From an uncultured Spirochaetales bacterium (GTDB lineage Bacteria > Spirochaetota > Spirochaetia > JAFGDJ01): DNA of 64,000 bases. Position 1 is the first letter of the stretch. Every line of letters begins with the position of its first letter. Below are positions 23,357 to 60,281 of this stretch, in pieces. The notes below the pieces were generated by a model. That model saw only the letters and a list, made by a program, of their open reading frames with translations, was not told the DNA's origin and did no database searches. Where the stretch lies: the NCBI GenBank assembly GCA_964410865.1, contig CAYPIQ010000006.1, forward strand, positions 36,865 to 100,864, read 5' to 3'. The position numbers and the translations under genes were made by a program.

Positions 23357-23805
23357 GGCTGATTATTGTAGCCGGAACTCCGGGTTCAGGAAAAACATCA
23401 ATTCTCATCCATGTACTGAAACGTCTTACTGAAGCGGGATCGCGGCCTTCAATTATAAAGATAGACTGTTTGTATACCGGCGACGACGCGCGGTTCAGGA
23501 AACTGGGGATTCCTGTCAGGGTTGGGTTATCCAAGGATGTCTGCCCTGATCATTTTACCATCTAAATAATGAATCCAGGATGTAGAATTGTAAACGCCAA
23601 TGGCACGACCGGACAAGGGGCCACGGAGATAGTCGGAATCATACAAACGGGCGGAGATATAGTAGATATAACCGAAGAGAGACTTCGGCATAACGCGCCA
23701 CTTTGTGTATGCACCCTTTGTGTCGGTGAAACAAGGGTCGGGAAGGCGTATCACCGGGGAATACTTCGCAGAATAGACGGGTTCGAGACCTATCTGGGAG
23801 AATAA
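23353..23805 (+). CDS. P-loop NTPase-like protein interrupted by one in-frame TAA (70-aa and 78-aa ORFs in the same frame)
   Basis: Walker A '[10 protein letters not shown]' lies at the N-terminus; TAA at 23563-23565 is in frame with the downstream '[22 protein letters not shown]...' (23569-23805). It may be a pseudogene, a sequencing error, or two genuine small ORFs. Confidence 0.45.
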
Positions 23806-24491
23806 TGGAGAATACTAATAAAAGGACAATCGAATCACTTGTTCAAATTCTTCCCGGATATAATTGCGGTGTCTGCGGTTTTGTCCGGTGTGATATGTTC
23901 GCCAAAGCGTTGCTGGAGGAGAAAACGACGATTGATCTTTGTAAACCACTCATGCAGGAGAGGTTTGTGGGGAAAAGAAGGGCAATCCAGGAAATACTCA
24001 CCGGTAAAACCACCAGGATACCCAAAGCTGTACCAGGAGGTGTGATTGACAAGTATGAAGCCGACTTTATTCTGAAACCCCTGGAGGGTGAAACCTCATG
24101 TCGGGAGATGCTTCACATCTTCGCGCCGATACATATTACCGCCGGTGACATAATTCGCTACAGACCCCTGGGATGCCCGATAACCCATATTGCGGAGGTT
24201 GTCGCGATGAAGATGGGGTTGGCGACAGTTAGGATCATTGGACCGCGGAACCGAATGGGTGAGCAGTTAACAATAAAAGAGGCAGGTATTTGTTTGGTCC
24301 TTGGTTTTGAAGGCACCGTTTCAGGAGATTTGCCTTCGGTGGGAGCCACTGTTCGGTTTGTACCCGGTGAGTGTATGATGCAAAAAGTTCATTCCGGTGT
24401 AATTGTTGGTTGTGAAGGACACCGCGTGGTGATGGAATGTGTCGATCTCAAGGTATGGGCTCCACCGGTTTCCCTACCGGAAACCGAGTAA
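23805..24491 (+). CDS. Fe-S protein with an RnfB-N-terminal-type cluster-binding domain (CxxCxxxxC...C) plus an uncharacterised C-terminal domain
   Basis: The motif 'LPGYNCGVCGFVRCDMFAKALLEEKTTIDLC' matches the RnfB/CFeSP 'FeS' domain pattern; the length is 228 aa and the start overlaps the upstream stop (TAATG). Confidence 0.6.
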   Translation: MENTNKRTIESLVQILPGYNCGVCGFVRCDMFAKALLEEKTTIDLCKPLMQERFVGKRRAIQEILTGKTTRIPKAVPGGVIDKYEADFILKPLEGETSCREMLHIFAPIHITAGDIIRYRPLGCPITHIAEVVAMKMGLATVRIIGPRNRMGEQLTIKEAGICLVLGFEGTVSGDLPSVGATVRFVPGECMMQKVHSGVIVGCEGHRVVMECVDLKVWAPPVSLPETE

Positions 24492-24582: not shown

Positions 24583-27500
24583 TCAGTACTGCCGGTCGGC
24601 CAGGTACTTGTAGGTTTCCCACTGGTCCTTTACGTCCTTCCTGACCTTGTTCAAGAGCATCTCGGCCCTTTCCGGGCTGCTCTGTTTAAGGCCCCGGAAA
24701 CGAATCTCGTTGTACATGTATTCGGCTATGTCTACCGACGGCTCTTTATAATCCAGGGTCAGCGGGTTCTTACCCTCCGCCAGGTTGTCCGGATTATACC
24801 GGTACAGCGGCCAGGCGCCGGAGTTGACGGCCAGTTTTTGCTGATCCATGCCCAGGGTCATATTGATGCCGTGATTGATACAGTGGCTGTATGCAATGAT
24901 CAACGACGGGCCGTCGTAGGCCTCGGCTTCCAGGAAGGCTTTGATCGTCTGCATTCTGTTGTATCCCATGGCAACCTGTGCCACATACACGTATCCATAA
25001 CTCATGACCATCATTCCCAGGTCTTTTTTCTTGACGCCCTTCCCCGCGGCGGCAAACTTGGCGGTGGCGCCCATCGGGGTTGCCTTGGACATCTGGCCGC
25101 CGGTATTGGAATATACACCGGTGTCTAGCACCAGGGCGTTGACGTTTCTTCCCGAAGCCAGCACGTGGTCGAGACCGCCATACCCGATGTCATATGCCCA
25201 GCCGTCTCCGCCCAGGATCCATACGCTGCGGCGTATCAGATAATCTGCCACCGAGAGAAGCTCCGCGGCATCGGGGTCTTCGCTCTTTTCAAGCTGCCTT
25301 TTCAGCTCGTCCACCCAGGATCTCTGGTTTTCTATCTCTACCTGCTCCTTCTGGGGGTTATCCTTTATTTTCTTGAGCAGGTCGGTGTCGATGCCCTTCG
25401 GTTTAGAAGACACCAGGCGGTCCAGGAGCTCCCCGGAATAGGTAACCATCCTATCGGCGGTGAGCCTCATGCCCATACCGAATTCCGCGGCGTCTTCGAA
25501 CAGAGAATTTGACCAGGCCGGTCCACGTCCGTCCTCTCGCCTGGTATACGGCGTAGTGGGCAGATTTCCACCGTAAATGGAAGAGCACCCTGTGGCGTTG
25601 GCTATAACGGCCCGGTCACCGAAAAACTGGCTCAGCAGCTTTACGTAGGGCGTTTCGCCGCAGCCGGCACAGGCCCCCGAGAATTCGAACAGCGGCTGGA
25701 GCAACTGGCTGCCCTTGGTGGTATGCCGTTTGATAAGAGAAGCATCGGTGTTGGGGATAGAGAGGAAGTAATTCCAGTTTTCGACCTCCTGATCCCTCAA
25801 GGGGAGCTGAGTCTCCATATTGATGGCCTTTTCTTCCGTTTTTTCTCCGTTAACCTTCTTGTACGCGGGGCAGATATTCACGCAGGAACCGCAGCCGGTA
25901 CAGTCCTCGGGGGCTACCTGGAGGGTGAATTTCATCCCGGAGAATTCTTTGCCCTTGGCGTCGGTGCTCTTGAAGGTTTCGGGAGCATCTTCCAGGTACT
26001 TCGGGTCGTAGACCTTCATCCGGATAACCGCGTGGGGACAAACGGTCGAACAGTCCCCGCACTGGATACAAGTATCCGGATCCCAGACAGGAATATTTTC
26101 GGCGATGTTGCGTTTCTCGTACTTTGTTGTACCGGTGGGATAGGTGCCGTCTTCCGGTAACTTGGATACGGGGATTTCCGTACCCCGAAAGGCGATTATT
26201 TCGCCGGTGACTTCCTTGACGAAGTCCGGGGCGTCATCAGGAACCGGGGGAATCATGTGGATGGTTCCGCCGGTTTCCTTCGGGTAGTTCACTTCTTCTA
26301 TCCTGGTTCTGGCCGCTTCAATGGCATCCATATTCAGTTTGACAATGTCGGAGCCCTTGGAGCCGTAGGTGTCTTCCACTGATTTTCTGATGAGTTCCAG
26401 GGCTTTATCTTCAGATAGGATGCCGGAAATGAGAAAGAAGGCGGTTTGCATTATCGTGTTGATTCTGCCCCCGAGCCCGATATTCTGGGCGATATTGATG
26501 GCGTCTATGACATAGAATCGTAATTTCTTGTCGATGATCGCCTGCTGGACTTCTACCGGAATATTTTCCCAGACCTCGTCTGCGCCGAAGGGGGCATTGA
26601 GCAGGAATACGCCTCCTACATCGGCGTATTTAAGCATGTCGTATTTTTCGAGAAAAGAGAATTTATGGCAAGCGACGAATTGGGCTTTCTGAATGAGATA
26701 GCTCGATTTGATTGGACGTTTACCGAAGCGCAGGTGGCTGGTCGTCATGGCGCCCGCTTTTTTCGAGTCGTATACAAAGTACCCCTGGGCGTAGTTTTCC
26801 GTGGCCTTACCGATAATCTTTATCGAGTTCTTGTTTGCGCTTACGGTTCCGTCCGAACCGAGACCGAAGAAAACCGCGCGGTGAACATCCTCCGGTTCTA
26901 TGGAGAGGTCCTTGTCCCATTCAAGGCTGGTAAAGGTACGATCGTCATGAATACCGACGGTAAAATGATTCATGGGAGATTCTTTTTTCAGGTTGTTGAA
27001 TACCGAAATAGCCATGGCGGCGGTAAACTCGTTGGACCCGAGACCGTAGCGTCCGCCGACGATAACGGGGTAGTCTGAGAAGGGTGCTTTTCCGGAGGCC
27101 ATTACTTCACCCACGGCGGTGCGAACATCTTCGTACAGCGGTTCGCCCAGGGCTCCCGGTTCCTTTGTCCTGTCCAGGACGGCTATTTTTTGTGCCGTCG
27201 CAGGAAGGGCCGCCACGAGGGCTTCGGTGTCGAAGGGACGGAAAAGCCGCACCTTTATCATTCCGACTTTTTCGCCCTTACCCGAGAGGTATTCGACTGT
27301 CTCCTCCACCGTGTCGGCGGAACTCCCCATGAGGATGACCACTCGTTCGGCGTCCGGTGCCCCCAGGTAGTCGAACAACCGGTATTGCCGCCCGGTAAGA
27401 GAGGCGAAACGGTCCATCATATCCTGTACATGCTTCGGTGCCTCCAGGTAGTACTTGTTGACGGTTTCCCGGGCGGCAAAAAACACGTCCGGATTCTGGC

Positions 27501-28164
27501 TGGTCCCGCGGAGTGCGGGATTCTCCGGATTAAGCCCCCGCTTTCTGTGGGCTCGTACAAGGTCGTCGTCTATCATTTTACGAAGGACCGATTCGGGAAT
27601 TTCTTCGACCTTACTTATTTCATGGCTTATCCTGAAACCGTCGAAGAAATGTAAAAAGGGCACCCGCGACTTAAGAGTCGCAGCCTGGGAAATTAACCCG
27701 AGGTCCAGTACTTCCTGCACGGAATTGGAGGCAATAAGCCCGAATCCCGTGGACCGCGCCGCCATAACGTCGGAATGATCGCCGAAGATGGACAGGGCCT
27801 GGCAAGCCACTGACCTGGCGGCAATATGAAAGACCGTCGGGGTGAGTTCCCCGGCAATCTTGAACATATTGGGCAGCATCAGGAGAAGCCCCTGGGATGC
27901 GGTAAAGGTTGTTGTTAAAGCGCCGGTGGTCAGAGCACCGTGAACGGCGCCGGAAGCTCCGCCTTCCGATTGCATTTCGATAACATCCGGGATGGTGCCC
28001 CAGATGTTCTTTTTGCCCTGCGCGGAGTAGAGGTCTGCGAGTTCCCCCATGGGAGAAGAGGGGGTTATCGGATAAATAGCTATAACCTCGTTGGTTGGAT
28101 GAGCAACCATGGCAGCGGCAGTGTTCCCGTCAATTGTAATCATGTTTTTATCAGACATATTCAA
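24583..28164 (-). CDS. Pyruvate:ferredoxin (flavodoxin) oxidoreductase, single-chain PFOR/NifJ type
   Basis: A 1193-aa protein with conserved PFOR N-terminal ('IDGNTAAAMVAHPTNEVIAIYPITPSS'), two 4Fe-4S ferredoxin motifs ('CIQCGDCSTVCPHAVIR', 'CTGCGSCVNICPA') and the TPP-binding C-terminal domain ('GGDGWAYDIGYGGLDHV'). Confidence 0.95.
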   Translation of the reverse strand: MNMSDKNMITIDGNTAAAMVAHPTNEVIAIYPITPSSPMGELADLYSAQGKKNIWGTIPDVIEMQSEGGASGAVHGALTTGALTTTFTASQGLLLMLPNMFKIAGELTPTVFHIAARSVACQALSIFGDHSDVMAARSTGFGLIASNSVQEVLDLGLISQAATLKSRVPFLHFFDGFRISHEISKVEEIPESVLRKMIDDDLVRAHRKRGLNPENPALRGTSQNPDVFFAARETVNKYYLEAPKHVQDMMDRFASLTGRQYRLFDYLGAPDAERVVILMGSSADTVEETVEYLSGKGEKVGMIKVRLFRPFDTEALVAALPATAQKIAVLDRTKEPGALGEPLYEDVRTAVGEVMASGKAPFSDYPVIVGGRYGLGSNEFTAAMAISVFNNLKKESPMNHFTVGIHDDRTFTSLEWDKDLSIEPEDVHRAVFFGLGSDGTVSANKNSIKIIGKATENYAQGYFVYDSKKAGAMTTSHLRFGKRPIKSSYLIQKAQFVACHKFSFLEKYDMLKYADVGGVFLLNAPFGADEVWENIPVEVQQAIIDKKLRFYVIDAINIAQNIGLGGRINTIMQTAFFLISGILSEDKALELIRKSVEDTYGSKGSDIVKLNMDAIEAARTRIEEVNYPKETGGTIHMIPPVPDDAPDFVKEVTGEIIAFRGTEIPVSKLPEDGTYPTGTTKYEKRNIAENIPVWDPDTCIQCGDCSTVCPHAVIRMKVYDPKYLEDAPETFKSTDAKGKEFSGMKFTLQVAPEDCTGCGSCVNICPAYKKVNGEKTEEKAINMETQLPLRDQEVENWNYFLSIPNTDASLIKRHTTKGSQLLQPLFEFSGACAGCGETPYVKLLSQFFGDRAVIANATGCSSIYGGNLPTTPYTRREDGRGPAWSNSLFEDAAEFGMGMRLTADRMVTYSGELLDRLVSSKPKGIDTDLLKKIKDNPQKEQVEIENQRSWVDELKRQLEKSEDPDAAELLSVADYLIRRSVWILGGDGWAYDIGYGGLDHVLASGRNVNALVLDTGVYSNTGGQMSKATPMGATAKFAAAGKGVKKKDLGMMVMSYGYVYVAQVAMGYNRMQTIKAFLEAEAYDGPSLIIAYSHCINHGINMTLGMDQQKLAVNSGAWPLYRYNPDNLAEGKNPLTLDYKEPSVDIAEYMYNEIRFRGLKQSSPERAEMLLNKVRKDVKDQWETYKYLADRQY

Positions 28165-30403: not shown

Positions 30404-31942
30404 TTATCCCTGGAATTCGTAGAGTAACCGTATTATATCGGCTTCAGCGAACAGGTCTACCAGTTTTTCCTGGATTATCGAACGTACCGTCGCCGGAGAA
30501 GACCTTCGCTCGAAAGAGTCCGCAATGCGCGAAAAGGTATCATAAAACGCTTCGGGACCGAACCGGGTGAATACACCGGGATCGGGGTTGCAGGATGATT
30601 CATCAATAGCCCGAATGTTCTCGAAAAGCCGGTAATTCAAACTTCTCAGTTCGTCACGAAAGGCCTGATCCCCGAGGCGTTCCAGCACTGTTACCTGCAA
30701 GTCCACATGCAGCATGGCAAAATCAGCCGTCCCTTCGTTCAGGCCGTCCAGGAATGCGGCTAATATGTCCGTGTTGAATCCCAACCTCTCGGAACGCCGA
30801 GTATAGCGTTGTTTGAGGGCAAGTATATCCCTGGATGTGAGGGGAATATTGAAATAGGTATAAAAGATTGCAGGGTACCGATGGAAAAAATCCCGAATAC
30901 CCTCGAGGATGTCGAGGTTACGGGCTATCAGCGGTTTTCTCCACTGTACGGCATCGGTATACAGGTACCCGAACCCCTCCTGTACGGAAGAAGAAATAAT
31001 GACGTCGGATGAGACCGCCAGCCGGTTGAAGCCTATACCGGCTTCATCGAGCCGCCGCCCGATTCCCCACATACCGGGTATTATCCCCCTGTGGTACAGA
31101 TCCTGGACCAGGGCGGAGTAGGGTTGTTCCTGTTTTGACACGCCGGGAAGCGTCAGCAGAAGGTTTGCACCCTGGAGAGCACATATGAGCCCTGCTTCCA
31201 GAACGTTTTTTCGGCGGATAGTCCTGACCGGATAGAGCCACAGGGGTTTATCCGGGTCATAGGAGGGAAAGGTATGTCCGAAAGCGTGCTCCAGGCGGCG
31301 GCGGAGGTCGGCAGGATCAGCCTCCGGCGGGGCGCGCAGTTCCACCGGGTTGTTGAGCAGAAAAACACAGTCCTCCGGTAAGCCGGCCCGGATAAGTAAC
31401 CGGTAATCCCGGTTGTTTATCACAGCATAACGGACATTCGGCAGAACAGGGTATACCTCTTTTCCTGCAAAATGCTGCAAAAACGAAAGATTGTAATAGC
31501 GGCCGTTCTCCGGAAAATCGTGGATGTGCAGAAGAATAGGCTGGTCCGAATTCTCTCCCGCGGCTTCCAAAAGCGTTGCTGTGAACACCGGGTTCTTCCC
31601 CAGGTGATAGTTGTGAACCCACCATAGGAAACCGTCGTAGTCGGAAACCAGCCGGTTCTTCAGGCCTCGTCGGTCGATGGACTCCGCCTCCTCCGGAGTG
31701 ACATAGCCGATTTCGGGGACAACCGACACGCCGATCCGGATATCCCTGCCCGCCGTCTGAACCTCCTTCCGCAGCCGGTCGGCCACCGTGCCGGCGTTTT
31801 CCGCCGTGCCGACCACCAGGAGTACCTCACCTAGAGCGGGGTGATTGTGTATCAGTGCCTTGAGGGAGAGGAAGATCACATTGGTCACACCGCCGGGAAG
31901 AAGGTGATAATGGAAGACGGCGATTCGGTTTGTAGAGCTCAT
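30404..31942 (-). CDS. GT4-related glycosyltransferase-like protein with a roughly 150-aa C-terminal extension (distant paralog of the genes at 38205 and 60814)
   Basis: The internal Met start 'MSSTNRIAVFHYHLLPGGVTNVI' resembles the 'IGFISTRFSGTDGVTLE' N-terminus of the paralogs, and an 'EGFG' motif 'SSVQEGFGYLYTDAVQWRKPLIARN' aligns with their 'EGFGNAFLEAVYFQKPILVNRY'. Confidence 0.5.
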   Translation of the reverse strand: MSSTNRIAVFHYHLLPGGVTNVIFLSLKALIHNHPALGEVLLVVGTAENAGTVADRLRKEVQTAGRDIRIGVSVVPEIGYVTPEEAESIDRRGLKNRLVSDYDGFLWWVHNYHLGKNPVFTATLLEAAGENSDQPILLHIHDFPENGRYYNLSFLQHFAGKEVYPVLPNVRYAVINNRDYRLLIRAGLPEDCVFLLNNPVELRAPPEADPADLRRRLEHAFGHTFPSYDPDKPLWLYPVRTIRRKNVLEAGLICALQGANLLLTLPGVSKQEQPYSALVQDLYHRGIIPGMWGIGRRLDEAGIGFNRLAVSSDVIISSSVQEGFGYLYTDAVQWRKPLIARNLDILEGIRDFFHRYPAIFYTYFNIPLTSRDILALKQRYTRRSERLGFNTDILAAFLDGLNEGTADFAMLHVDLQVTVLERLGDQAFRDELRSLNYRLFENIRAIDESSCNPDPGVFTRFGPEAFYDTFSRIADSFERRSSPATVRSIIQEKLVDLFAEADIIRLLYEFQG

Positions 31943-32008
31943 ACCCCGCAATAATACAAAAAACACGGCGGGCTTACAACATGAGAAGGTTTCCCTTATC
32001 GAAACCAA

Positions 32009-34317: not shown

Positions 34318-34330
34318 ACTCGTTCCTCCT

Positions 34331-34496
34331 GATTCGCACGGGGGATTCATACCCCGCGGCTTGCTGCTCTCTTTGTAGCCGAGCCGGCTGACTGCCTCGC
34401 CAATGGTTGCGGTACGGGGTATGAATCCCGTATACAATCCATACCTTGCAAAACCGACATACCCCGCCCCTTGGGACGGGGTATGTCGGTTTTTTA
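34331..34496 (+). repeat. Copy A of a roughly 165-nt structured intergenic repeat element
   Basis: It contains the long-range stem 'gggattcataccccg'/'cggggtatgaatccc', a constant core 'gccgagccggctgactgcctcgccaatggttgc' and a 3' hairpin 'cgacataccccgcccc-ttgg-gacggggtatgtcg' followed by TTTTTT. It is near-identical to the copies at 49150 and, in reverse orientation, 58737. Confidence 0.85.
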
Positions 34497-44274: not shown

Positions 44275-44372
44275 GGTAATGGTTTACACCGCGTTAGTCA
44301 AAGCCGAAATTTTCAGCTGCCAGTATGCGATGATAACGGGTTTTGAAATCCCGAGGCCCGGGTATTGAAATG

Positions 44373-44386
44373 TGCACTTAAGTGCA
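44373..44386. promoter_or_regulatory. Perfect 14-bp palindrome TGCACTTAAGTGCA in the -35/-10 spacer upstream of the first NifX-like gene
   Basis: It lies between TTGAAA (44364-44369) and TAAACT. A half-site 'TGCACTTAAGTT' recurs at 44839-44850 inside a TTGACA-N18-TATATT promoter upstream of the DUF134 gene. Confidence 0.5.
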
Positions 44387-44419
44387 TTAAACTCAATGAT
44401 GTATACACAATGGAAGTGA

Positions 44420-44833
44420 GTGAGGTATGTATGTATGGTTATCAGGGCGGCCTTTGCAACGGACGACGGTGAAAAATTCATAAACAGGCATTTTGGTGAT
44501 GCACGGTATTTCCGGTTGTACGAGATAGACGGACATGGGTACCGGTTTCTTCGACAGATTGAAAATTCCAGTGATGATGAGAGGGAAGGAGTACACGCGG
44601 ATCCGAAAAAGGCTCGAAGCGTGGCCGGGATACTCCTGAATGAAGGGGTGAATACCGTCGTATCACGGGTGTTCGGCCCCAATATTAAGCGAATTCGTAC
44701 AAAATTTGTCTGTATAGTTATGGACGATCTTTCTATTGAGACATCCGTAGATTTGATACAAAAGCACCGTGCCGACATCGAAGAGGAATGGAATAAGGGA
44801 GAAAGTCGAAAACATCTTAAGATTTCTTCTTGA
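44420..44833 (+). CDS. NifX/NafY-type dinitrogenase FeMo-cofactor-biosynthesis-domain protein (COG1433-like), copy 1
   Basis: The sequence 'IRAAFATDDGEKFINRHFGDARYFRLYEIDGHGYRFLRQIEN...' matches the NifB/NifX-family small-protein pattern; the length is 137 aa. Confidence 0.7.
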   Translation: MRYVCMVIRAAFATDDGEKFINRHFGDARYFRLYEIDGHGYRFLRQIENSSDDEREGVHADPKKARSVAGILLNEGVNTVVSRVFGPNIKRIRTKFVCIVMDDLSIETSVDLIQKHRADIEEEWNKGESRKHLKISS

Positions 44834-44885
44834 CATTATGCACTTAAGTTCAATATATTAGGATTGAAGGCACAGGGATGAATGT

Positions 44886-45344
44886 ATGCCGAGACCGCAG
44901 AAAGAAAGGATTGTAAGCAGACCACCTCTGTATTCGTCTTTCAAGCCCACCGGGGTGAGAAAAAACGAGCTAGGGCAAATTTCGCTTACCCTTGATGAAT
45001 ATGAAGCCATTCGTCTTGCGGATTATCTCCAGTTGGAGCACGAAGAGGCTTCTATTGAAATGGATATATCCCGCTCGACCTTTACAAGGCTTTTAGAAAG
45101 GGCGAGACAAAAGGTATCTGCGTTTATTATCGAAGGGAAGGAACTAAGTATCGAAGGCGGCCGCGTTCATTTCCGGGCAAATATCATGCGGTGTGCAGGG
45201 TGCGGGAATATATTCAGTGCCGGTTTCGAGCGTAATGTTACATCATGTCCGGCCTGCGGATCCCGGGATCTTGTAGATATGGCCGGTGGATACGGTCACG
45301 GAAGGTGTTGTCTTCAATTCAATATATCAAAGGAGAACAAATAG
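44886..45344 (+). CDS. DUF134 (UPF0251) predicted DNA-binding protein with a C-terminal CxxC...CxxC zinc ribbon
   Basis: 'MPRPQKERIV...FKPTGV...LTLDEYEAIRLADYLQLEHEEASIEMDISRSTFTRLLERARQKV' is the DUF134 hallmark, followed by 'CAGCGNIFSAGFERNVTSCPACG'. Confidence 0.8.
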   Translation: MPRPQKERIVSRPPLYSSFKPTGVRKNELGQISLTLDEYEAIRLADYLQLEHEEASIEMDISRSTFTRLLERARQKVSAFIIEGKELSIEGGRVHFRANIMRCAGCGNIFSAGFERNVTSCPACGSRDLVDMAGGYGHGRCCLQFNISKENK

Positions 45345-45346
45345 AT

Positions 45347-45607
45347 ATGCCCAGAGGAGACGGAACAGGGCCTGCGGGACAGGGACCCGGAACAGGGAAA
45401 GGATTGGGAAGAAAACCCGGAGGCGGAGGCCGGGGACGTCATAGCGGAGGTGCTTTTGGTCCCGGCGGAATGTGTATATGCGCGAAATGCGGGACTAAAA
45501 TTCCTCATCAACAGGGAACATCATGTACGGAACTAAAGTGTCCGAATTGCGGGCAAACCATGATTCGCGAAGAGTTGCTCGAAGAAAAAAGAAAGAGAAA
45601 AGAATGA
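45347..45607 (+). CDS. DUF5320-family small glycine-rich protein
   Basis: 'MPRGDGTGPAGQGPGTGKGLG...GGMCICAKCG...CPNCG' followed by a coiled-coil tail matches DUF5320; the ATG at 45347 follows RBS 'aaaggag', and the ORF-track 5' extension is rejected. Confidence 0.75.
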   Translation: MPRGDGTGPAGQGPGTGKGLGRKPGGGGRGRHSGGAFGPGGMCICAKCGTKIPHQQGTSCTELKCPNCGQTMIREELLEEKRKRKE

Positions 45608-46473
45608 AAATCGCCATTGCCAGCGGGAAGGGTGGTACAGGAAAAACCACCCTTTCGGTAAACCTGGCGGCGTATCTCGCGGAGACCCGGCCGGTTATAT
45701 TAACCGATCTCGATGTGGAGGAGCCGAACTCGGGACTTTTTCTCAAAAAGGGGAGAGCTGAATTCCGAAAAGATGTATTCAGGATGGTCCCGTCATGGAA
45801 ACAGTCATCCTGTACCCTCTGCGGATTATGCCAGGAGGTGTGTAACTTCAATTCGATAATAAAAATGGGGGACGAGGTAATGATATTCCCCGAACTCTGC
45901 CATGGATGTTACGCCTGCAGCGAGCTCTGTCCGACGGATTCACTCCCCATGGTTCCGGAAAAAATCGGTGAATTGGCGAGTTATACGGCAGGCGATATTT
46001 CTTTTATCGACAGCCGACTCGATATCGGGCAGGAACAGGCGGTACCGCTGATTGCCGAGACACTCTCCTACGTGGAAGATGAATTCCCCCGGGATGTCCT
46101 TAAAATATATGACGCTCCGCCGGGTACGTCCTGCCCTGTTATAGAAGCGGTAAAGGACGCGGATTTTATTCTGCTTGTAACCGAGCCAACCCCCTTCGGG
46201 CTTCACGATCTCCGGCTTGCCCTCGAGACGGTCAGGAGCCTGGGAAAAAGATGCGCGGTTGTGGTCAACAGGTACGGTCTCGGGAATGCCGATGTCGATG
46301 AATACTGCCGGCGGGAAGGTATCGACATCGTGGCGAAGCTGCCGAACAGGCGGCAGGTGGCGGAGCTTTATTCCCGGGGAAGGCTTGTCTACCCGGAGGT
46401 GCCGGAGATTGCCGCGGAGCTGGAAAATTTAGCTGCGTATATCGACGGGCTGGAAAAGGAGATGCGGGGATGA
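45604..46473 (+). CDS. MinD/ParA-superfamily P-loop ATPase with an inserted 2x[4Fe-4S] ferredoxin domain (COG1149-like), copy 1
   Basis: The deviant Walker A 'ASGKGGTGKTT' and the ferredoxin insert 'CTLCGLCQEVCNFNSI...CHGCYACSELCPTDS' are present; the start overlaps the upstream stop (ATGA). Confidence 0.85.
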   Translation: MKIAIASGKGGTGKTTLSVNLAAYLAETRPVILTDLDVEEPNSGLFLKKGRAEFRKDVFRMVPSWKQSSCTLCGLCQEVCNFNSIIKMGDEVMIFPELCHGCYACSELCPTDSLPMVPEKIGELASYTAGDISFIDSRLDIGQEQAVPLIAETLSYVEDEFPRDVLKIYDAPPGTSCPVIEAVKDADFILLVTEPTPFGLHDLRLALETVRSLGKRCAVVVNRYGLGNADVDEYCRREGIDIVAKLPNRRQVAELYSRGRLVYPEVPEIAAELENLAAYIDGLEKEMRG

Positions 46474-47357
46474 AAGAGATTGTCGTGATTTCCGGCAAAG
46501 GCGGAACCGGCAAAACCTCGGTGACGGCTTCTTTTTCAGTACTCGCAGGCCCCGAGGTGATAACCGCTGATTGTGATGTGGATGCGGCGGATATGCATCT
46601 GCTTTTACAGCCGGATTTCGCCGAAGCCCATGATTTCTTCAGCGGCCTGAAAGCCCGTATCGATGCTTTACAGTGTTCGGGCTGCGGGAGGTGTGCGGAG
46701 GTCTGTCGTTTCGGAGCCGTGGACCTAGTCGATGATGTGTATTCAGTCGTTTCCCTGGATTGTGAAGGCTGCGGATACTGCGCCCGGATCTGTCCGGAGA
46801 AGGCTATAGTTATGGAAGAGCAGAACGTCGGAGAGTGGTATCGGTCGTCCATTAAAACCGCCGGTATAATGATCCACGCTCGTCTCGGCATAGGCGCGGA
46901 CAATTCCGGAAAACTTGTAGCCAAGGTGAAAAACGAGGCAAAACGGGTAGCGGAAGAAACAGGTAAGAATATCGTCCTTGTAGACGGATCGCCGGGTATC
47001 GGATGCCCGGTGGTCTCCTCTCTTTCGGGGGCCGATTTTGTTGTATTTGTTACTGAACCGACGGTATCCGGTCTCCATGATGTTAAACGGGTTCATGAGG
47101 TGGTAAAGAACTTCGATATCCCTTCGGGATGCATCATAAATAAAGCCGATTTGAATCCGGAGATAACAGGGCAGTTGAAGGATTTTTTTGCCGAAGAAGG
47201 CATTGTCCATCTTGCCGACCTCCCCTATGACGAAAGCTTTACGGAAGCGATGGTCATGGGCCAAACGATTGTGGAATTCGCCGGCGGCAGACTCACCTCG
47301 GAGATCTCCGCATGCTGGCAGCGTATAAAAACTATAGTTCATACAAAAGGAGAATGA
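46470..47357 (+). CDS. MinD/ParA-superfamily P-loop ATPase with an inserted 2x[4Fe-4S] ferredoxin domain, copy 2
   Basis: 'ISGKGGTGKTS' with the insert 'CSGCGRCAEVCRFGAV...CEGCGYCARICPEKA'; the start overlaps the upstream stop (ATGA). Confidence 0.85.
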   Translation: MKEIVVISGKGGTGKTSVTASFSVLAGPEVITADCDVDAADMHLLLQPDFAEAHDFFSGLKARIDALQCSGCGRCAEVCRFGAVDLVDDVYSVVSLDCEGCGYCARICPEKAIVMEEQNVGEWYRSSIKTAGIMIHARLGIGADNSGKLVAKVKNEAKRVAEETGKNIVLVDGSPGIGCPVVSSLSGADFVVFVTEPTVSGLHDVKRVHEVVKNFDIPSGCIINKADLNPEITGQLKDFFAEEGIVHLADLPYDESFTEAMVMGQTIVEFAGGRLTSEISACWQRIKTIVHTKGE

Positions 47358-47360
47358 TAT

Positions 47361-47699
47361 ATGAGGATTGCTTTCACCAGTAAAGGCGCCGGGCCGGATT
47401 CAGCGATAGATCCGCGGTTCGGAAGAACGGAGTATATTCTACTCTACGATGAAGAGAAGGACGAGTATACTCCTGTGGATAACCGGGCGATAGGCGGGGT
47501 CGCCCACGGGGCCGGGCCTCAGACAGCCCAAAAATTGTTTGACCTCCAGCCGGATGTACTCATTACCGGCAATGGACCGGGGGGGAATGCAGCCGCCGCT
47601 CTGCAAAAGGCAAACCTGGATATATATACCGGAGCCGGGCAGATGACCGTTAAACAAGCCTATGATGCATATAAAAAAGGTGAACTGAAAAAGTTTTAG
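47361..47699 (+). CDS. NifX/NafY-type FeMo-cofactor-biosynthesis-domain protein, copy 2
   Basis: 'MRIAFTSKGAGPDSAIDPRFGRTEYILLYDEEKDEYTPVDNRA...LQPDVLITGNGPGGNA' matches the NifX-family pattern; it is 112 aa and starts 3 nt after the upstream stop. Confidence 0.75.
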   Translation: MRIAFTSKGAGPDSAIDPRFGRTEYILLYDEEKDEYTPVDNRAIGGVAHGAGPQTAQKLFDLQPDVLITGNGPGGNAAAALQKANLDIYTGAGQMTVKQAYDAYKKGELKKF

Positions 47700-47775
47700 T
47701 AGTTTCGTTAGACACGCCGGCGGCTTGACCGGCTGCCGGTATGTCGTTCCAGCGGTTGTAGAAGAGGAGGCTCCT

Positions 47776-48723
47776 GTGTATTCATATTTATTCGGTCCGG
47801 TCCCTTCCCGGCGCCTAGGCATGTCCCTCGGCGTTGATCTGGTTCCACACAAGGTATGCACCTTCAACTGTGTATACTGCGAGTGCGGCAGGACAACCCA
47901 TTTGACCAGGCAACGGGATGAATACGTTCCGGTTAATGCCGTGATGGAAGAATTGGGGCGGTTTTTTATCGATAATCCGAAACCGGATTATGTCACTTTT
48001 TCAGGAGCCGGTGAACCAACATTGAACTCCGGGATCGGTACGGTGCTCGACTTTATCAAAACCGAACACGAGGGTATGCCCGTGGCGGTGCTTACCAATG
48101 GAAGTCTGCTCTCGGATCCGGAAGTGCGGTCGGAGATCCTGGCTGCCGATGTTGTTCTGCCATCGCTGGATGCGGCTTCGGAGTCGACCTTCCGCAGGCT
48201 GGACAGACCAGTCCACAGTATCGTTCTGTCTGAGTACATTCAAGGCCTTGTTGATTTCAGGGAGGAATACGCGGGCAGAATATGGCTCGAGGTAATGATG
48301 CTGCCGGGTTATAACGACAACCCGGATGATCTCAGGTTACTGAAGGAAGCGTTTTTGAGAATACGGCCCGATCTTATACAGCTCAATACCCTTGACAGAC
48401 CCGGCACGGTGAAGGACCTCCGGCCTGCGTCACGGGAGGACCTGGAACGGATTATCGATACCTGGGCATTGGACAATGTAGAGATCATCGCCGCGGCGCC
48501 GGAACGAAAGAATATTCAGTCATACAGAAAAGATACGGAGACGGCGATCCTCGAGACCATTGCCAGGCGGCCCTGCACTCTCGAGGACCTCGGCAGTATT
48601 CTCGGCACCCATATTAACGAAGTCAATAAGTATCTCGGTGTTCTCGAGGAAGAAGGGAAAATAGAGACCCTGCGTCAGGAAAGAGGTGTGTTTTACCAGC
48701 TGAAAAAAAACCACCGGGCGTGA
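47776..48723 (+). CDS. Radical SAM protein with a C-terminal winged-helix-like tail
   Basis: The N-terminal 'YLFGPVPSRRLGMSLGVDL' is followed by 'CTFNCVYCECG' (CxxxCxxC); the GTG start at 47776 sits 6 nt after 'GAGGAGG', and the ORF-track 5' extension is rejected. Confidence 0.7.
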   Translation: MYSYLFGPVPSRRLGMSLGVDLVPHKVCTFNCVYCECGRTTHLTRQRDEYVPVNAVMEELGRFFIDNPKPDYVTFSGAGEPTLNSGIGTVLDFIKTEHEGMPVAVLTNGSLLSDPEVRSEILAADVVLPSLDAASESTFRRLDRPVHSIVLSEYIQGLVDFREEYAGRIWLEVMMLPGYNDNPDDLRLLKEAFLRIRPDLIQLNTLDRPGTVKDLRPASREDLERIIDTWALDNVEIIAAAPERKNIQSYRKDTETAILETIARRPCTLEDLGSILGTHINEVNKYLGVLEEEGKIETLRQERGVFYQLKKNHRA

Positions 48724-48761
48724 TGCACCGGCGGTTCCATCCAGGGGGGAATTTTTTCCGG

Positions 48762-49136
48762 TTAATGGTGGCCGTGGTCCCGTCCCGTTCCGTCACCCTT
48801 CCCCTCTCCGCGGACACAGGTGCTTTCTCCTGATTCCAAGGAGCCGTTGATATAGTCCTTTATTACCTGTTCTACGTCACCCTGCACGCCGGAAATACAT
48901 TCCATATTGTACTGCTGAAAGAAACCCTGGGCTCTCCGGCCCATCCCGCCGGTAATAATAACATTACAGCCGTTATTATGAAGAAACTCTGGGATAGCGC
49001 CGGGAGCGTGGCCGGGATTCGCCAGGATGTTTTTATTCGCCACGGTTGACCCTTCTATATCGAAGACCGTATATTCCGAACATCGTCCGAAATGCTCCGC
49101 TACACTGCCGTTTTCCGTTGCTATGGCAATTTTCAT
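48762..49136 (-). CDS. NifX/NafY-type FeMo-cofactor-biosynthesis-domain protein, copy 3 (convergent)
   Basis: 'MKIAIATENGSVAEHFGRCSEYTVFDIEG...GCNVIITGGMG' matches the NifX-family pattern; the start CAT at 49134-49136 has RBS GGAG, and the ORF-track N-terminal extension is a translation of repeat copy B. Confidence 0.75.
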   Translation of the reverse strand: MKIAIATENGSVAEHFGRCSEYTVFDIEGSTVANKNILANPGHAPGAIPEFLHNNGCNVIITGGMGRRAQGFFQQYNMECISGVQGDVEQVIKDYINGSLESGESTCVRGEGKGDGTGRDHGHH

Positions 49137-49149
49137 TTTCTTCTCCTGT

Positions 49150-49323
49150 ATGTACATATGATTCGCACGCGGGATCCATACCCCGCGGCTTGCCGCGCTC
49201 TTCGGAACCGAGCCGGCTGACTGCCTCGCCAATGGTTGCTGTACGGGGTATGAATCCCGCATACAATCCATACCTTGCAGAACCAACATACCCCCGCCCC
49301 TTGGCGCCGGGGTATGTTGATTA
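49150..49323 (+). repeat. Copy B of the roughly 165-nt structured repeat element
   Basis: It is near-identical to copy A with scattered substitutions and one indel. Confidence 0.85.
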
Positions 49324-49337
49324 TTAGTGACTATAAA

Positions 49338-50306
49338 TTACTTTAATTCGTCCTGCCGGGCAAGAATTGTCTGTAACCAGGTTATAAATTTTCCAACGAA
49401 GGACCACTGTATACGTTCTCTTGTTGTATGAACATCGAAAAGATTCGGGCCCATGGATACGGCTTCGATTCCGCCGGCTTTCGCGGAAAGAATACCGCAC
49501 TCCAGGCCTGCATGAACGGTTACAATTTCTACCGGTTCAGTAAAGATGCCCTCTCTGCAGCTCCGGCAGAGTGATACGAGGCGGGACCCAGGGGCGGGGG
49601 GCCAGGGAGGGTAGGTGGTTGTGTTGGAGACGTGCAGACCCGCGCGCCCGATGAGTTCCTTGATGTTCCTTTCGCCCTCGTCGAGTTCTTCCTGTTGATC
49701 CGAACGGAGGCTTATTTCCAGGTGGGTATTGTTCAGACCGTCGACCCTCAGGACACCGGGGTTGGCCGAGGTACTTACCTGGCCGCCCATCTCTTCATTT
49801 CTCCTCAGGACACCGGCCGGCAGATTCAGGATGAGGTCCGGCAGGGTTTTGAGGCCCTGGTCTGTAAGGGCTCCGACCCTGGCGGTATCTGTTTTTGTGA
49901 GTGATATCCGGGGGGTTGAATCGGGATTGGAATAGATATCGTTGAACTCTTTTTCGAAACGCCGGTAGAGTGGTAAGAGGAGCTTTTCCCCCTCCTCCGG
50001 TATAAAGAAGGTGACGGTGCAGTTGGTCGGGATTGCATTTATCTTTCCTTCGCCCTTAATATCGGTAACCGCAGGTTTCAAGTCGGAAAGACCGGAAAGA
50101 AAAGAAGCAAAGCGACGGTACAGATTCTCAGGACTTGTCCCGATATCCATGCCGGAATGGCCGCCTTTGAGCCCGTCGGCGGTTATATAGTCTCCCTCCC
50201 GCAAGGGGATGACGGGGTCTTTAGTAAAATCATGGGAAGAACCGGTATCTTTAACGCACACCATGTCCAGGTGTCCCTGAAGGATAACGGCGGGGGCATC
50301 TTCCAT
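49338..50306 (-). pseudogene. pepD: Aminoacyl-histidine dipeptidase (PepD, M20 family) remnant lacking the N-terminus and with a large internal deletion
   Basis: 'ILQGHLDMV...HDFTKDPV' and the C-terminal 'HAGLECGIL...SMGP...HTTRERI' match PepD, but roughly 130 aa between 'KDPV...' and 'LKGGHSG' are missing and the N-terminal roughly 70 aa are absent. Confidence 0.6.
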
Positions 50307-50900: not shown

Positions 50901-51172
50901 CGGTGGGGAGGGTCGTCGGTTCTACTGAGTTACATATAATTCGCCGGTTTCTTCCGCAGCCTCCCCAGCCACGTATTTCATACCGGCAAGGCTGTAAGCG
51001 GCACGGTATGCCGCATCCTGCGTATCATCGACGAACTCGATGACGACGGTTTCCGCGGCTTTGGTTGTACCTGTTAATACGTCGATCATCCTGATAAACA
51101 GATTCATTTTCTCCCCCAGGCCGGAGAGTTCGCCGACCAGGGTGGTACCGGCGGCCGGGAGTTTTTTTATTT

Positions 51173-51345
51173 AGTTGCTCATGCCGCCGCGCGGCAACCG
51201 AAAGGATGAAAACAGGCGGGTATAGCAATTCCGGTGTGGCTATTTTCGTAATAGTTGCTCATGCCGCTGCGCGGCAACCGAAAGGATGAAAACAGCCGGG
51301 TGCGGCTATTCCGGTGCGGCTATTTTTGTATTAGTTGGCACAGCT
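51173..51345. repeat. Tandem direct repeat, roughly 78 bp x 2.2, each unit carrying a GC hairpin (gttgc...gccgccgcgcggc...aac)
   Basis: 'agttgctcatgccgccgcgcggcaaccgaaaggatgaaaacaggcgggtatagcaattccggtgtggctattttcgta' is followed by a near-identical second unit and a partial third. Confidence 0.8.
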
Positions 51346-58211: not shown

Positions 58212-58736
58212 CTACATAACTTCCAGGGTGCCCGTCTTCTTTGCTCTTACCTCGAACCGTCGGAAGAGAGAATAGCCCATGAGAAGGTAGAGGGTCCCGA
58301 CCAGGAGTTCTTTGAGCGGTAGAATGCCGACCTGTCCGGATGCGGCGCCTTCGGATATTATAAGCCGGGCTGCGGCGATGCCGTGGGAGAGGGGAAGAAA
58401 GGAGGATGCATCCCTGATCCATCCGGGTAGATCGCTCAGGGGCACATTAGCCCCGGAGAAGAGCAGGAGGAGAAAATATACAGTATTGTTTACGAACATC
58501 ACGTTGCGGGTTATCAGGCCGATGCAACCCATCAACAGCCCCAGCCCGGAGGTGCTGAAAACCGAAACCAGAACAGCCAGGGACAGCATTCCCAGCCGGT
58601 CCGAGGGTATATGCAGGCCGAAAAGGATAATGCCCCAGGTAAAGGCAATGGCCACCCCCATCATCTTGAACGCGAGATCCGTGGAAGGTCGAAACCGGCG
58701 GAACAGCGCGCGGTTATCAAAAAAATCGAGAAAATC
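58212..58736 (-). pseudogene. C-terminal portion of an ABC-2-type permease whose 5' end is replaced by repeat element copy C
   Basis: Four transmembrane helices ('MMGVAIAFTWGIILFGL...', 'LSLAVLVSVFSTSGLGLLMG') match the C-terminal half of ABC-2 permeases; the ORF-track N-terminus 'MQNQHTPPLGAGYV' is a translation of the repeat. Confidence 0.5.
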
Positions 58737-58893
58737 AACATACCCTGCCCCAAGGGGCGGGGTATGTTGGTTCTGCAAGGTATGGATTTTATGCGGGATT
58801 CATACCCCGTACCGTAACGGTTGTCGAGGCAGTTAGCCGGCTCGGCTCCGAAGAGCGCGGCAAGCCGCGGGGTATGAATCCCGCGTGCGAATC
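58737..58893 (-). repeat. Copy C of the roughly 165-nt structured repeat element (reverse orientation)
   Basis: It is the reverse complement of copies A and B: 'aacataccctgccccaaggggcggggtatgttgg...ccggctcggctcc...ccgcggggtatgaatcccgcgtgcgaatc'. Confidence 0.85.
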
Positions 58894-59001
58894 ATCCACC
58901 GGGTCGGGAGAGAGTGGTTTAATTGTAACGGTCATATTAACCTTCCGCCCTATAGAATTATTCCCCCCGGGTCCGTTGGATGGACCCGGGAGGTAGGCCC
59001 T

Positions 59002-59880: not shown

Positions 59881-59977
59881 TGTTTTCTCCTTATATAAAC
59901 GAGTGTTAATTACAGTGTAGCACTTCAGCTTGCATCATGAAAGGCTCTTAACGAGGTTTTCTTTTCTATTCAACTTT

Positions 59978-60026
59978 ATTCGCACGGGGGATTCATGCCC
60001 CGCCCCTTGTGGCGGGATATGTTGGT
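59978..60026 (+). repeat. Copy D: internally deleted mini version of the repeat element
   Basis: In 'attcgcacgggggattcatgccccgccccttgtggcgggatatgttgg' the 5' end of the element joins directly to the 3' hairpin. Confidence 0.7.
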
Positions 60027-60072
60027 TAAGTATCTTATACTTTACCTGCATCCTGCACGGCAGCCGCGGCAT

Positions 60073-60155
60073 CGGCGGTTTAACGGAATCTATCCCGGGG
60101 ACCGGGGGATGTAATCGGCGGTTTAACGGAATCTATCCCGGGGACCGGGGGATGT
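60073..60155. repeat. Tandem direct repeat, 41 bp x 2 (cggcggtttaacggaatctatcccggggaccgggggatgta)
   Basis: Two contiguous identical units are seen directly, each containing the inverted repeat 'cccggggaccggggg'. Confidence 0.85.
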
Positions 60156-60281
60156 ATCAGCGTATGGGGTTGCACCGCTGCACATCCGAGGTTCCTCTTT
60201 TACCAAAACCGGTTCTCAATGTAGTAGACGCCTGTATATCTGCCGAGCTGGAACTCGGGTCGGCGAACCTGGATTCCCCGG

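Follow-up and report, generated by a model that had tools for sequence, protein, structure and literature searches.

The orange-protein (ORP) complex has been described in Desulfovibrio vulgaris Hildenborough, where its genes (orp3-orp4-orp5 and orp7-orp8-orp9, DVU2103-DVU2109) form two divergent operons that depend on sigma54, IHF and the activator OrpR (PMC6345978, PMC8359166, PMC3897727). Orp3 and Orp4 are paralogues with two [4Fe-4S] ferredoxin motifs each, and Orp5 and Orp8 are 'Di-Nase' (NifX-like) proteins (PMC6345978, PMC8359166, PMC3897727). Proteins of the Orp8 type carry a non-covalent Mo-Cu-S cluster, the orange protein binding [S2MoS2CuS2MoS2]; Orp9 (MrpORP), a fusion of an Mrp ATPase with a Di-Nase domain, gives Fe-S clusters to Orp3 and Orp4; and Orp3, Orp4 and Orp8 co-purify (PMC6345978). 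OrpR senses redox potential via a [4Fe-4S] cluster in its PAS domain (PMC8359166). A cluster of eight genes (g1 to g8) with several of these components is described here from a 64,000-nucleotide stretch of DNA, referred to as the window, of an uncultured Spirochaetales bacterium (contig CAYPIQ010000006.1, assembly GCA_964410865.1). We consider it probable that the cluster is an ORP-type module of a Marispirochaeta-related anaerobic spirochaete, namely an ATP-driven carrier of metal-sulfur clusters under the control of a cluster-sensing repressor of the DUF134 family.

Gene content and relation to the orange-protein system

Seven co-directional genes on the plus strand and a convergent eighth had been proposed in a preliminary description of this DNA, and all eight open reading frames (ORFs) are present where it placed them. 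The first, g1 (44435..44833), specifies a divergent NifX-like protein of 132 amino acids (Pfam Nitro_FeMo-Co, PF02579, 1.7e-10); its ORF opens with a GTG at 44420 (44420-44833), the ATG at 44435 being the likelier start. It is followed by g2 (44886..45344), which encodes a 152 amino acid DUF134/UPF0251 protein (Pfam, 3e-22), and g3 (45347..45607), encoding a small Gly/Arg-rich DUF5320 protein of 86 amino acids. The products of g4 (45604..46473) and g5 (46470..47357) are paralogous MinD-type ATPases with a ferredoxin insert (types A4 and A5, respectively), each of which matches CbiA/ParA (P-loop) and has two Fer4 motifs. Next come g6 (47361..47699), specifying a 112 amino acid homologue of the orange protein (Orp8) with a NifX-like fold (Nitro_FeMo-Co, 1.2e-13), and g7 (47776..48723), a radical SAM enzyme (Radical_SAM, 1.6e-14). 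On the minus strand and convergent with g7 lies g8 (48762..49136), the gene for a stand-alone NifX-like protein (Nitro_FeMo-Co, 7.5e-21). Every family that had been assigned beforehand was thereby recovered in Pfam searches: DUF134, DUF5320 (borderline), two ferredoxin-ATPases, three Nitro_FeMo-Co proteins and Radical_SAM.

Direct reading of the junctions also bore out the suggested translational coupling, with ATGA overlaps at 45604 (g3/g4) and 46470 (g4/g5) and gaps of 2 nt between g2 and g3 and 3 nt between g5 and g6. Between g6 and g7 lie 25 nt, or 76 nt with the GTG at 47776 as the start of g7; the ORF itself opens with a TTG at 47725, and the GTG, which is preceded by the Shine-Dalgarno sequence GAGGAGG, appears more likely to be used. 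On a near-identical contig an independent gene caller gave the same lengths for g1, g2, g4 and g5, and missed g3. Marispirochaeta proteins show 70-71% identity to that of g4, which places the organism close to this genus as an anaerobic spirochaete.

The match of g8 to an MrpORP model, the match of g6 to a solved orange protein and the published descriptions of the components indicate that g4, g5, g6 and g8 correspond to the ORP system. Orp3 and Orp4, matched by their published description, resemble g4 and g5. Orp8 resembles g6, which is 37% identical over 108 of its 112 residues to the orange protein of D. gigas (PDB 2WFB; E 1e-11) and also matches TM1290 (PDB 1RDU; E 2e-12). Further Di-Nase/NifX-like proteins are found in both clusters, both occur in an anaerobe, and both are without linkage to nitrogenase. 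The MrpORP model (NF041136) is matched by g8 at positions 261-365 only (5.7e-31; 108 bits, cut-off 450), and on this match g8 is the putative free-standing equivalent of the C-terminal Di-Nase domain of MrpORP; its PDB matches are PH0822 and TM1816. Residues H15, C19, H43 and C107 are conserved among g8-type proteins and resemble the motifs proposed to hold a [3Fe-4S] cluster in MrpORP's Di-Nase domain.

The two systems also differ. The Mrp ATPase part of MrpORP is absent, tblastn revealing no Mrp/NBP35 ATPase anywhere in the window, and only the Di-Nase domain is represented, as g8. The window holds one co-directional operon, in contrast to the two divergent operons of D. vulgaris, and adds two genes: the DUF5320 gene g3, which encodes a cysteine module, and the radical SAM gene g7, which encodes a C-terminal winged helix-turn-helix (wHTH)-like domain. 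Whereas D. vulgaris relies on sigma54 promoters and OrpR, the window cluster has neither (no enhancer-binding protein was detected in the window by tblastn), and has DUF134 and sigma70-type promoters with an operator in the spacer instead. Judged by its gene content, the cluster is best described as a distinct variant of the ORP family, marked by presumptive DUF134/sigma70 control, the lack of Mrp, and the DUF5320/Cys-module and radical SAM-wHTH genes.

The conservation of this neighbourhood was assessed by using an alignment of g4 relatives to scan a single genome of each species, which gave 80 loci; the counts below refer to 82 loci, 47 of them with full flanks, in which ORFs were called crudely and classed by phmmer (first-round scores) and by home-made hidden Markov models (HMMs) seeded from the window proteins. 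The loci come from more than 15 phyla, including Spirochaetota, Bacteroidota, Calditrichota, Marinimicrobia, Cloacimonadota, Campylobacterota, Planctomycetota, Desulfobacterota, Chloroflexota, Acidobacteriota, Gemmatimonadota, Fibrobacterota, Zixibacteria, NC10 and Ignavibacteriota. A4 and A5 are adjacent in 73 of the 82 loci (42 of the 47 with full flanks), so that the conserved synteny in anaerobes expected from the preliminary description does exist. Among the full-flank loci, 46 of 47 contain a NifX-like gene of some kind, 44 the orange-protein type (g6-like), 28 the g8 type and 23 DUF134. A separate search with g4 returned at least 8,000 matches, and proteins more than 60% identical to it occur across several phyla. 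Pfam analysis of a Marispirochaeta and a Bacteroidota neighbourhood revealed the order DUF134, (DUF5320), ATPase, ATPase, NifX-like, radical SAM, the last gene being adjacent in Marispirochaeta and about 3.5 kb further on in the Bacteroidota genome.

The remaining neighbours were clustered, and those families recurring in three or more loci were named by eye from representative sequences. They include the coiled-coil form of DUF5320 (28 loci), Mrp/NBP35 ATPases (18 loci) and OrpR-like sigma54 activators whose PAS domain carries a C-x8-C-x3-C pattern (14 loci), together with DUF89, metallo-beta-lactamase (MBL)-fold, CGGC, pyridine nucleotide-disulfide oxidoreductase, methyltransferase and peroxiredoxin genes. 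In the more distant loci the same genes adjoin OrpR-like activators and Mrp ATPases, as in D. vulgaris. DUF134 is found within 5 kb of the ATPase pair in 35 loci and an OrpR-like activator in 14, and no locus has both within this distance. Two loci (L042 and L047) possess the two regulators farther apart, DUF134 there heading a separate DUF134-NifX unit. The reverse test used 34 metagenome loci anchored on DUF134 whose downstream sequence extends for 1.5 kb or more: 26 of them contain the ATPase within 2.5 kb, and the other eight have NifX-like, DUF5320, radical SAM or Mrp genes.

Promoter-spacer palindromes and the predicted DUF134 regulator

Two sigma70-type promoters were located, which are the two best plus-strand matches between 44000 and 49600. 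P1 (TTGAAA-17-TAAACT, 44365..44393) lies upstream of g1, and P2 (TTGACA-18-TATATT, 44830..44859; 11 of 12 consensus positions) upstream of g2. The spacer of P1 contains the palindrome TGCACTTAAGTGCA (44373-44386) and that of P2 a second copy with one mismatch, TGCACTTAAGTTCA (44839-44852); a pattern search gave these two matches against 0.07 expected by chance. They score 21.3 and 20.1 bits, respectively, with the position weight matrix (PWM) described below, and are the only strong sites in the window, the next best reaching 13.3 bits. Since neither stands at g8, the local regulon is predicted to consist of g1 and g2-g7. The palindrome at 44373 had already been singled out as the probable operator and is real; the copy at 44839 and the position of both within promoter spacers had been overlooked.

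Near-identical palindromes occur 0-60 nt upstream of DUF134 genes in genome loci from many phyla, and exact GCAC-N4-GTGC sequences near DUF134 starts number 4 against 0.15 expected. In several loci tandem sites lie 22-33 bp apart. The PWM (consensus TGCACATATGTGCA) was built from the genome loci only and tested on an independent set of 80 DUF134-anchored metagenome loci, where 65 of 71 upstream regions contained a site of at least 17 bits, compared with 2 of 325 control windows. In the set anchored on the ATPases the operator was found in 23 of 37 loci with DUF134 and in 2 of 45 without it (Fisher p = 1.2e-8), showing that it tracks DUF134 and not the ATPases. Alignment of 81 non-identical contexts gave TTGcATTa-TGCACATATGTgCA-TTATaTT, that is, -35 element, operator and -10 element; in all 81 the operator fills the space between the -35 (in Bacteroidota -33) and -10/-7 elements, and it can be traced over more than ten bacterial phyla. 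Because the operator occupies spacers of 17-18 bp and overlaps the core sigma70 promoter, occlusion of RNA polymerase, and hence autorepression, is predicted.

The earlier proposal of DUF134 as a dedicated regulator, with the palindrome as its operator, gains strong comparative support from these counts, binding itself being predicted. The literature searched contains no mention of the operator sequence, nor was the operator-regulator pairing, which the comparative evidence strongly supports as a prediction, found in the accessible literature. Weak sites of the form TGGRCATATGTTCA lie about 360 bp inside the DUF134 genes of six loci (L008, L009, L012, L018, L020 and L021). As they coincide with the codons of a conserved peptide, CGHMF, coding constraint is the simplest explanation, and a role as internal operators is less likely. 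Two loci in which no DUF134 was detected, L029 (site at 8564, 22.1 bits) and L037 (8700, 20.5 bits), have strong operators 270-350 nt upstream of the ATPase pair, which suggests regulation in trans by a DUF134 whose gene lies elsewhere, or a missed short gene.

The g2 product scores 79.4 bits against DUF134/UPF0251 (PF02001; gathering threshold 27). It possesses a helix-turn-helix (HTH) of the sigma70 region 4 type at about residues 31-83, a zinc-ribbon pattern CxxC..CPxC (C103, C106, C121, C124) and a GHGxCC tail. A family search gave 608 close relatives, and when 1.84 billion representatives were searched with a profile, 4,430 matched at E<=1e-3; the family counts some 4,400 cluster representatives at 50% identity. 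In the close subfamily C103, C106, C121, C124, H95 and the tail G-H138-G-x-C141-C142 are invariant in the alignment; in the wider family conservation above 90% is confined to the four ribbon cysteines. No solved structure for DUF134 was found by PDB sequence search. The AlphaFold2 model has a mean predicted local distance difference test (pLDDT) score of 74, with values above 90 in the HTH region, and by Foldseek the HTH core of the model superposes on region 4 of extracytoplasmic function (ECF) sigma factors and on DeoR DNA-binding domains with a root-mean-square deviation (rmsd) of 0.6-1.0 A. With the full model, Foldseek gave matches at the HTH level only; those to MCM proteins (rmsd >13 A) are meaningless and were discarded.

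The product of g3 narrowly exceeds the gathering threshold of PF17253 (27.5 bits; threshold 27), positions 1-51 of 99 of the profile being matched. It has the N-terminal MPRGDGTGP motif, and its C-terminus is a cysteine module (C-x-C-x2-C-G-x4-6-H-x2-G-x2-C-x4-C-x2-C), unlike the coiled coil of the commoner DUF5320 form; the module was found in 56 other loci. It is fused after the ribbon of DUF134 in 14 of 150 family representatives, while 8 of the 150 carry a C-terminal Nitro_FeMo-Co domain, g8-like in three of them. There are also two fusions of DUF134 with DUF5320 (P0198 and P0207), one of which is present on 4 contigs. From these features the g3 product is probably a partner or sensor subunit of DUF134. 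Genes of the g3 type (45347-45607 in the window, 7696-7998 in L001, 5741-6001 in L165) are uncalled in the public assemblies of the closest relatives; being conserved, translationally coupled and fused to DUF134 elsewhere, they are probably under-annotated in general. The literature searched held only incidental mentions of DUF134, DUF5320, UPF0251, COG1342, COG1149 and COG1433, and no function for DUF134 or DUF5320.

DUF134 would share with OrpR the standing of a dedicated orp-type regulator with a cysteine-based sensor, and up to 5 kb from the ATPase pair one takes the place of the other. They are not homologous: OrpR activates sigma54 promoters from upstream sites, whereas DUF134 is small and its site overlaps a core sigma70 promoter. 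A conceptual likeness exists to the Rrf2 regulators IscR, NsrR and RirA, which are small sensors with Cys ligands and, through a promoter palindrome, control their own operon for metallocluster biogenesis. The Rrf2 repressors are, however, winged-helix proteins, in contrast to the sigma70 region-4-like HTH and zinc ribbon of DUF134, and the operators differ too.

The ferredoxin-ATPases, NifX-like proteins and competing functions

The g4 and g5 proteins are 29% identical and 49% similar. Both types retain the deviant Walker A motif GKGGTGKT, and in each the eight cysteines that make up two CxxCxxCxxxC motifs are conserved to at least 98%. Both also have, at the same position, an invariant switch-II cysteine (C177 in g4, C179 in g5) seven residues beyond the Walker-B aspartate; this is the spacing from D125 to the cluster ligand C132 in NifH. 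The strict pairing of the two types across phyla argues that they form a heterodimer. For g4 the AlphaFold2 model (pLDDT 84) has its best fold match in MinD, followed by FleN, Soj, NifH, BchL, ATPase-type HypB and CooC. A PDB sequence search returned generic MinD and ferredoxin pieces only, and neither sequence nor fold searches with g4 revealed a PDB entry with a ferredoxin insert in the ATPase core. The deviant Walker A (GKGGxGKT) dimer ATPase fold is common to g4/g5 and to NifH, BchL, CooC, HypB and Mrp/NBP35, members of the SIMIBI class to which they can also be likened in the handling of metals or clusters and in the switch-II cysteine; a complete 2x[4Fe-4S] ferredoxin domain inserted in the ATPase core distinguishes g4/g5 from all of these.

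The fold matches invite two other explanations. In the first, which we regard as unlikely, the pair is a low-potential reductase that is powered by ATP in the manner of NifH or BchL and serves an unnamed substrate or enzyme, with the NifX-like proteins as cofactor carriers of that enzyme. The appearance of NifH and BchL among the matches, the two [4Fe-4S] clusters per subunit, the NifH-like position of the invariant cysteine and the expression of the Desulfovibrio cluster only at very low redox potential (PMC8359166) would all suit such an enzyme. No partner of the NifDK, BchNB or CfbD type, however, was found among the window ORFs scanned with Pfam (outside the cluster 30 further ORFs, nearly all of those of at least 250 amino acids) or recurring in the 82 loci, and one interface cysteine per subunit is invariant, no more.

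The second explanation, a cell-division or positioning system of the kind originally put forward for the Desulfovibrio ORP complex, in which g4 and g5 are spatial regulators and the Fe-S and NifX-like parts serve only to tune activity to redox, seems a shade less plausible still. MinD, FleN/FlhG and Soj/ParA are indeed the best structural matches of g4, and in D. vulgaris the loss of OrpR leads to morphological defects and MrpORP is polar (PMC8359166, PMC6345978). Yet g4 and g5 reach just 31.8 and 35.4 bits with the MinD model TIGR01968 (cut-off 212.9), and 48.1 and 58.1 bits with TIGR01969 (cut-off 201.75), and there is no minC or minE in the cluster or MinC or MinE nearby, so they were rejected as true MinD proteins. 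The eight ferredoxin cysteines and the switch-II cysteine are invariant in both paralogues, the pair is constantly found with NifX-like carriers, Mrp/NBP35, CGGC and radical SAM genes, and the regulators themselves carry Fe-S or NifX-like sensor parts.

NifX, NafY, the C-terminal domain of NifB and IssA have in common with g1, g6 and g8 the small alpha/beta Nitro_FeMo-Co fold, which binds inorganic metal-sulfur clusters, but the window proteins stand outside a nitrogenase context and below the equivalog HMM thresholds. With the nifX equivalog TIGR02663, g1 scores 34.7 bits (cut-off 112), and g6 and g8 give no match; nothing was found for g1 by PDB sequence search. Common to the g7-like proteins are GPVPSRRLGxSLG near the N-terminus, CxxxCxYC, and a winged-helix-like domain with an RRPCT motif at the C-terminus; their only conserved cysteines are those of CxxxCxYC. 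In NCBIfam g7 falls into none of the curated radical SAM families and gives no match to the nifB model (TIGR01290); its best PDB match is PflA, a weak one (E 0.002). A reading of g7 and a NifX-like neighbour as a 'split NifB' was rejected, given the missing auxiliary-cluster ligands and nifB-model match. We regard g7 as an optional accessory of the module.

It is very improbable that the cluster is a nitrogenase accessory region with its nif genes beyond the window. Such a region would explain the three Nitro_FeMo-Co proteins and the weak nifX match of g1, but that match is far below its cut-off, g7 has neither the nifB-model match nor the conserved auxiliary-cluster cysteines, and no nitrogenase-like family is among the recurrent neighbours of the 82 loci. 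Nor does any nitrogenase-type Pfam family occur among the window ORFs scanned, which extend 45 kb upstream and 15 kb downstream of the cluster; the previous observation that the 64 kb contain no nif genes holds for these ORFs.

Directly upstream of the DUF134 cluster of Marispirochaeta aestuarii (L001, 2352-7156) lie genes for a YeeE/YedE-type sulfur transporter, TusA, a class-V aminotransferase (cysteine desulfurase-like), a Se/S carrier protein, a C_GCAxxG_C_C protein and hemerythrin. This set of sulfur-trafficking genes, missing from the window, accords with a part in assembling clusters. It would also fit the buffering or detoxification of the thiometallates and metal sulfides (Mo, W, Cu, Fe) that arise spontaneously in sulfidic anaerobes, with NifX-like proteins as sinks that the ATPases load and unload and DUF134 as a sensor of metal sulfide. 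Besides the YeeE, TusA and cysteine desulfurase genes, the fusion of DUF134 to NifX-like domains and the binding of [S2MoS2CuS2MoS2] by the orange protein and of thioferrate by IssA (PMC6345978) can be cited for this explanation. There is, on the other hand, no transporter for Mo, W or Cu nearby among the window ORFs scanned, metal would be expected to act as an inducer under the repressor model, and the explanation overlaps heavily with that of a cluster carrier; we give it a low probability.

The scanned ORFs in the rest of the window include those for a methyl-accepting chemotaxis protein, an MMPL transporter, glycosyltransferases, SerA, a SerC-like protein, a chromate transporter and OsmC; FakA/DegV is known from the annotation of the near-identical contig. 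A 1,193 amino acid ORF (24583-28164), outside the Pfam scan, is by eye a pyruvate:ferredoxin oxidoreductase and is adjoined on the opposite strand by a small PF04060 'putative Fe-S cluster' protein (23805-24491). The two fit a strictly anaerobic, ferredoxin-based metabolism. Two minus-strand ORFs are without a Pfam family, one of 322 amino acids (49338-50306; E<=1e-4), which begins abruptly and may be a truncated gene, and one of 534 amino acids (30404-32008; E<=1e-5).

An intergenic dispersed repeat of about 150-165 nt is present at 34330-34493, at 49158-49304, directly upstream of g8, and as the reverse complement at 58731-58894, with a partial copy at 59969-60009. The copies are about 90% identical and contain internal inverted repeats and a terminal GC-rich hairpin followed by a T-run. 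Rfam gave no match anywhere in the window, this repeat included, which looks like a repetitive extragenic palindrome (REP)- or miniature inverted-repeat transposable element (MITE)-like element or a small RNA. Intergenic tandem duplications were noted at 51172-51331 (2 x 80 nt, 89% identical) and 60071-60156 (2 x 43 nt, 100% identical).

Proposed role of the module and its regulator

In the reading that we favour, a metal-sulfur cluster carrier under DUF134 control, the g4 and g5 proteins, as Fe-S-containing ATPases of the MinD/NifH class, would form an ATP-dependent heterodimer. The g6 and g8 proteins and the divergent paralogue g1 would hold inorganic metal-sulfur clusters non-covalently and work with this heterodimer, the most likely task of the module being to load, transfer or remodel labile metal-sulfur clusters with the use of ATP and electrons. 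P1 would drive g1, and P2 would drive g2-g7. DUF134, probably together with g3, would bind the 14-bp palindrome as a dimer and, once bound, block RNA polymerase and so act as an autorepressor. Sensing of the cluster, cofactor or redox state would fall to its Cys/His-rich tail together with the g3 module and a NifX-like partner, and would lead to the release of repression. The domain fusions and the mutual exclusion near the ATPase pair suggest that DUF134, probably with g3 and a NifX-fold partner, is the functional counterpart of OrpR; the DUF134 system would then be the sigma70 counterpart of that [4Fe-4S] redox sensor, which activates the orp operons of Desulfovibrio.

The gene content, ORP homology, conserved synteny, co-occurrence of operator and DUF134, operator position and domain fusions were all computed directly. 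From these we infer DNA binding by DUF134, repression over activation, the signal sensed, the g4/g5 heterodimer and the cluster-handling chemistry. What is sensed is likely to be whether a metal-sulfur cluster or cofactor is present, or the state that it is in. A role in the assembly, carriage or insertion of metalloclusters, as put forward in the preliminary description, fits all of the evidence and is proven by none of it.

Several points weigh against this reading. The neighbourhood had been thought to have no assigned function; a named ORP cluster does exist, but even for Desulfovibrio its physiological role is still described as unclear, cell division being a proposed connection (PMC8359166). 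The closest solved folds of g4 are those of true MinD proteins, so that structure alone favours neither a cluster-handling nor a positioning role. The membership of g8 in the cluster rests solely on family and proximity; it is without an upstream operator, and the repeat element stands between it and its upstream gene. A g7-like radical SAM gene is found in about a third (16 of 47) of the full-flank loci. The operator could be owned by another factor that co-occurs with DUF134, such as g3, and the census was confined to relatives with an identity of at least 42% to g4, or of about 55% to g2; some contigs of the metagenome set are near-duplicates. Finally, activators of the MerR type also bind an operator in the spacer. 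MerR-like activation is nevertheless less likely than repression: the spacers here are 17 and 18 bp, not the over-long 19-20 bp, and the fold of DUF134 is not that of MerR.

A wider proposal may be made tentatively, with rather less confidence than that of a DUF134-controlled cluster carrier. DUF134 (UPF0251/COG1342), with the g3 module and a NifX-fold partner or domain, may constitute a so far unrecognised class of transcription factors, which would detect metal-sulfur clusters or cofactors by reading the loading of NifX-type carriers, repress ORP-type operons from the promoter spacer, and replace OrpR in at least 10 phyla. The ORP system is present in a very wide range of anaerobes, yet its function is unsolved more than a decade after its description. 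If the proposal is true, it would provide a first function for two widespread DUF families and a genetic handle on this system. A testable operator-regulator pair, with its fusions, offers a way to learn when ORP genes are switched on and to define the DUF134 regulon in any genome; that regulon and the conditions of its induction could show what the orange-protein machinery is for.

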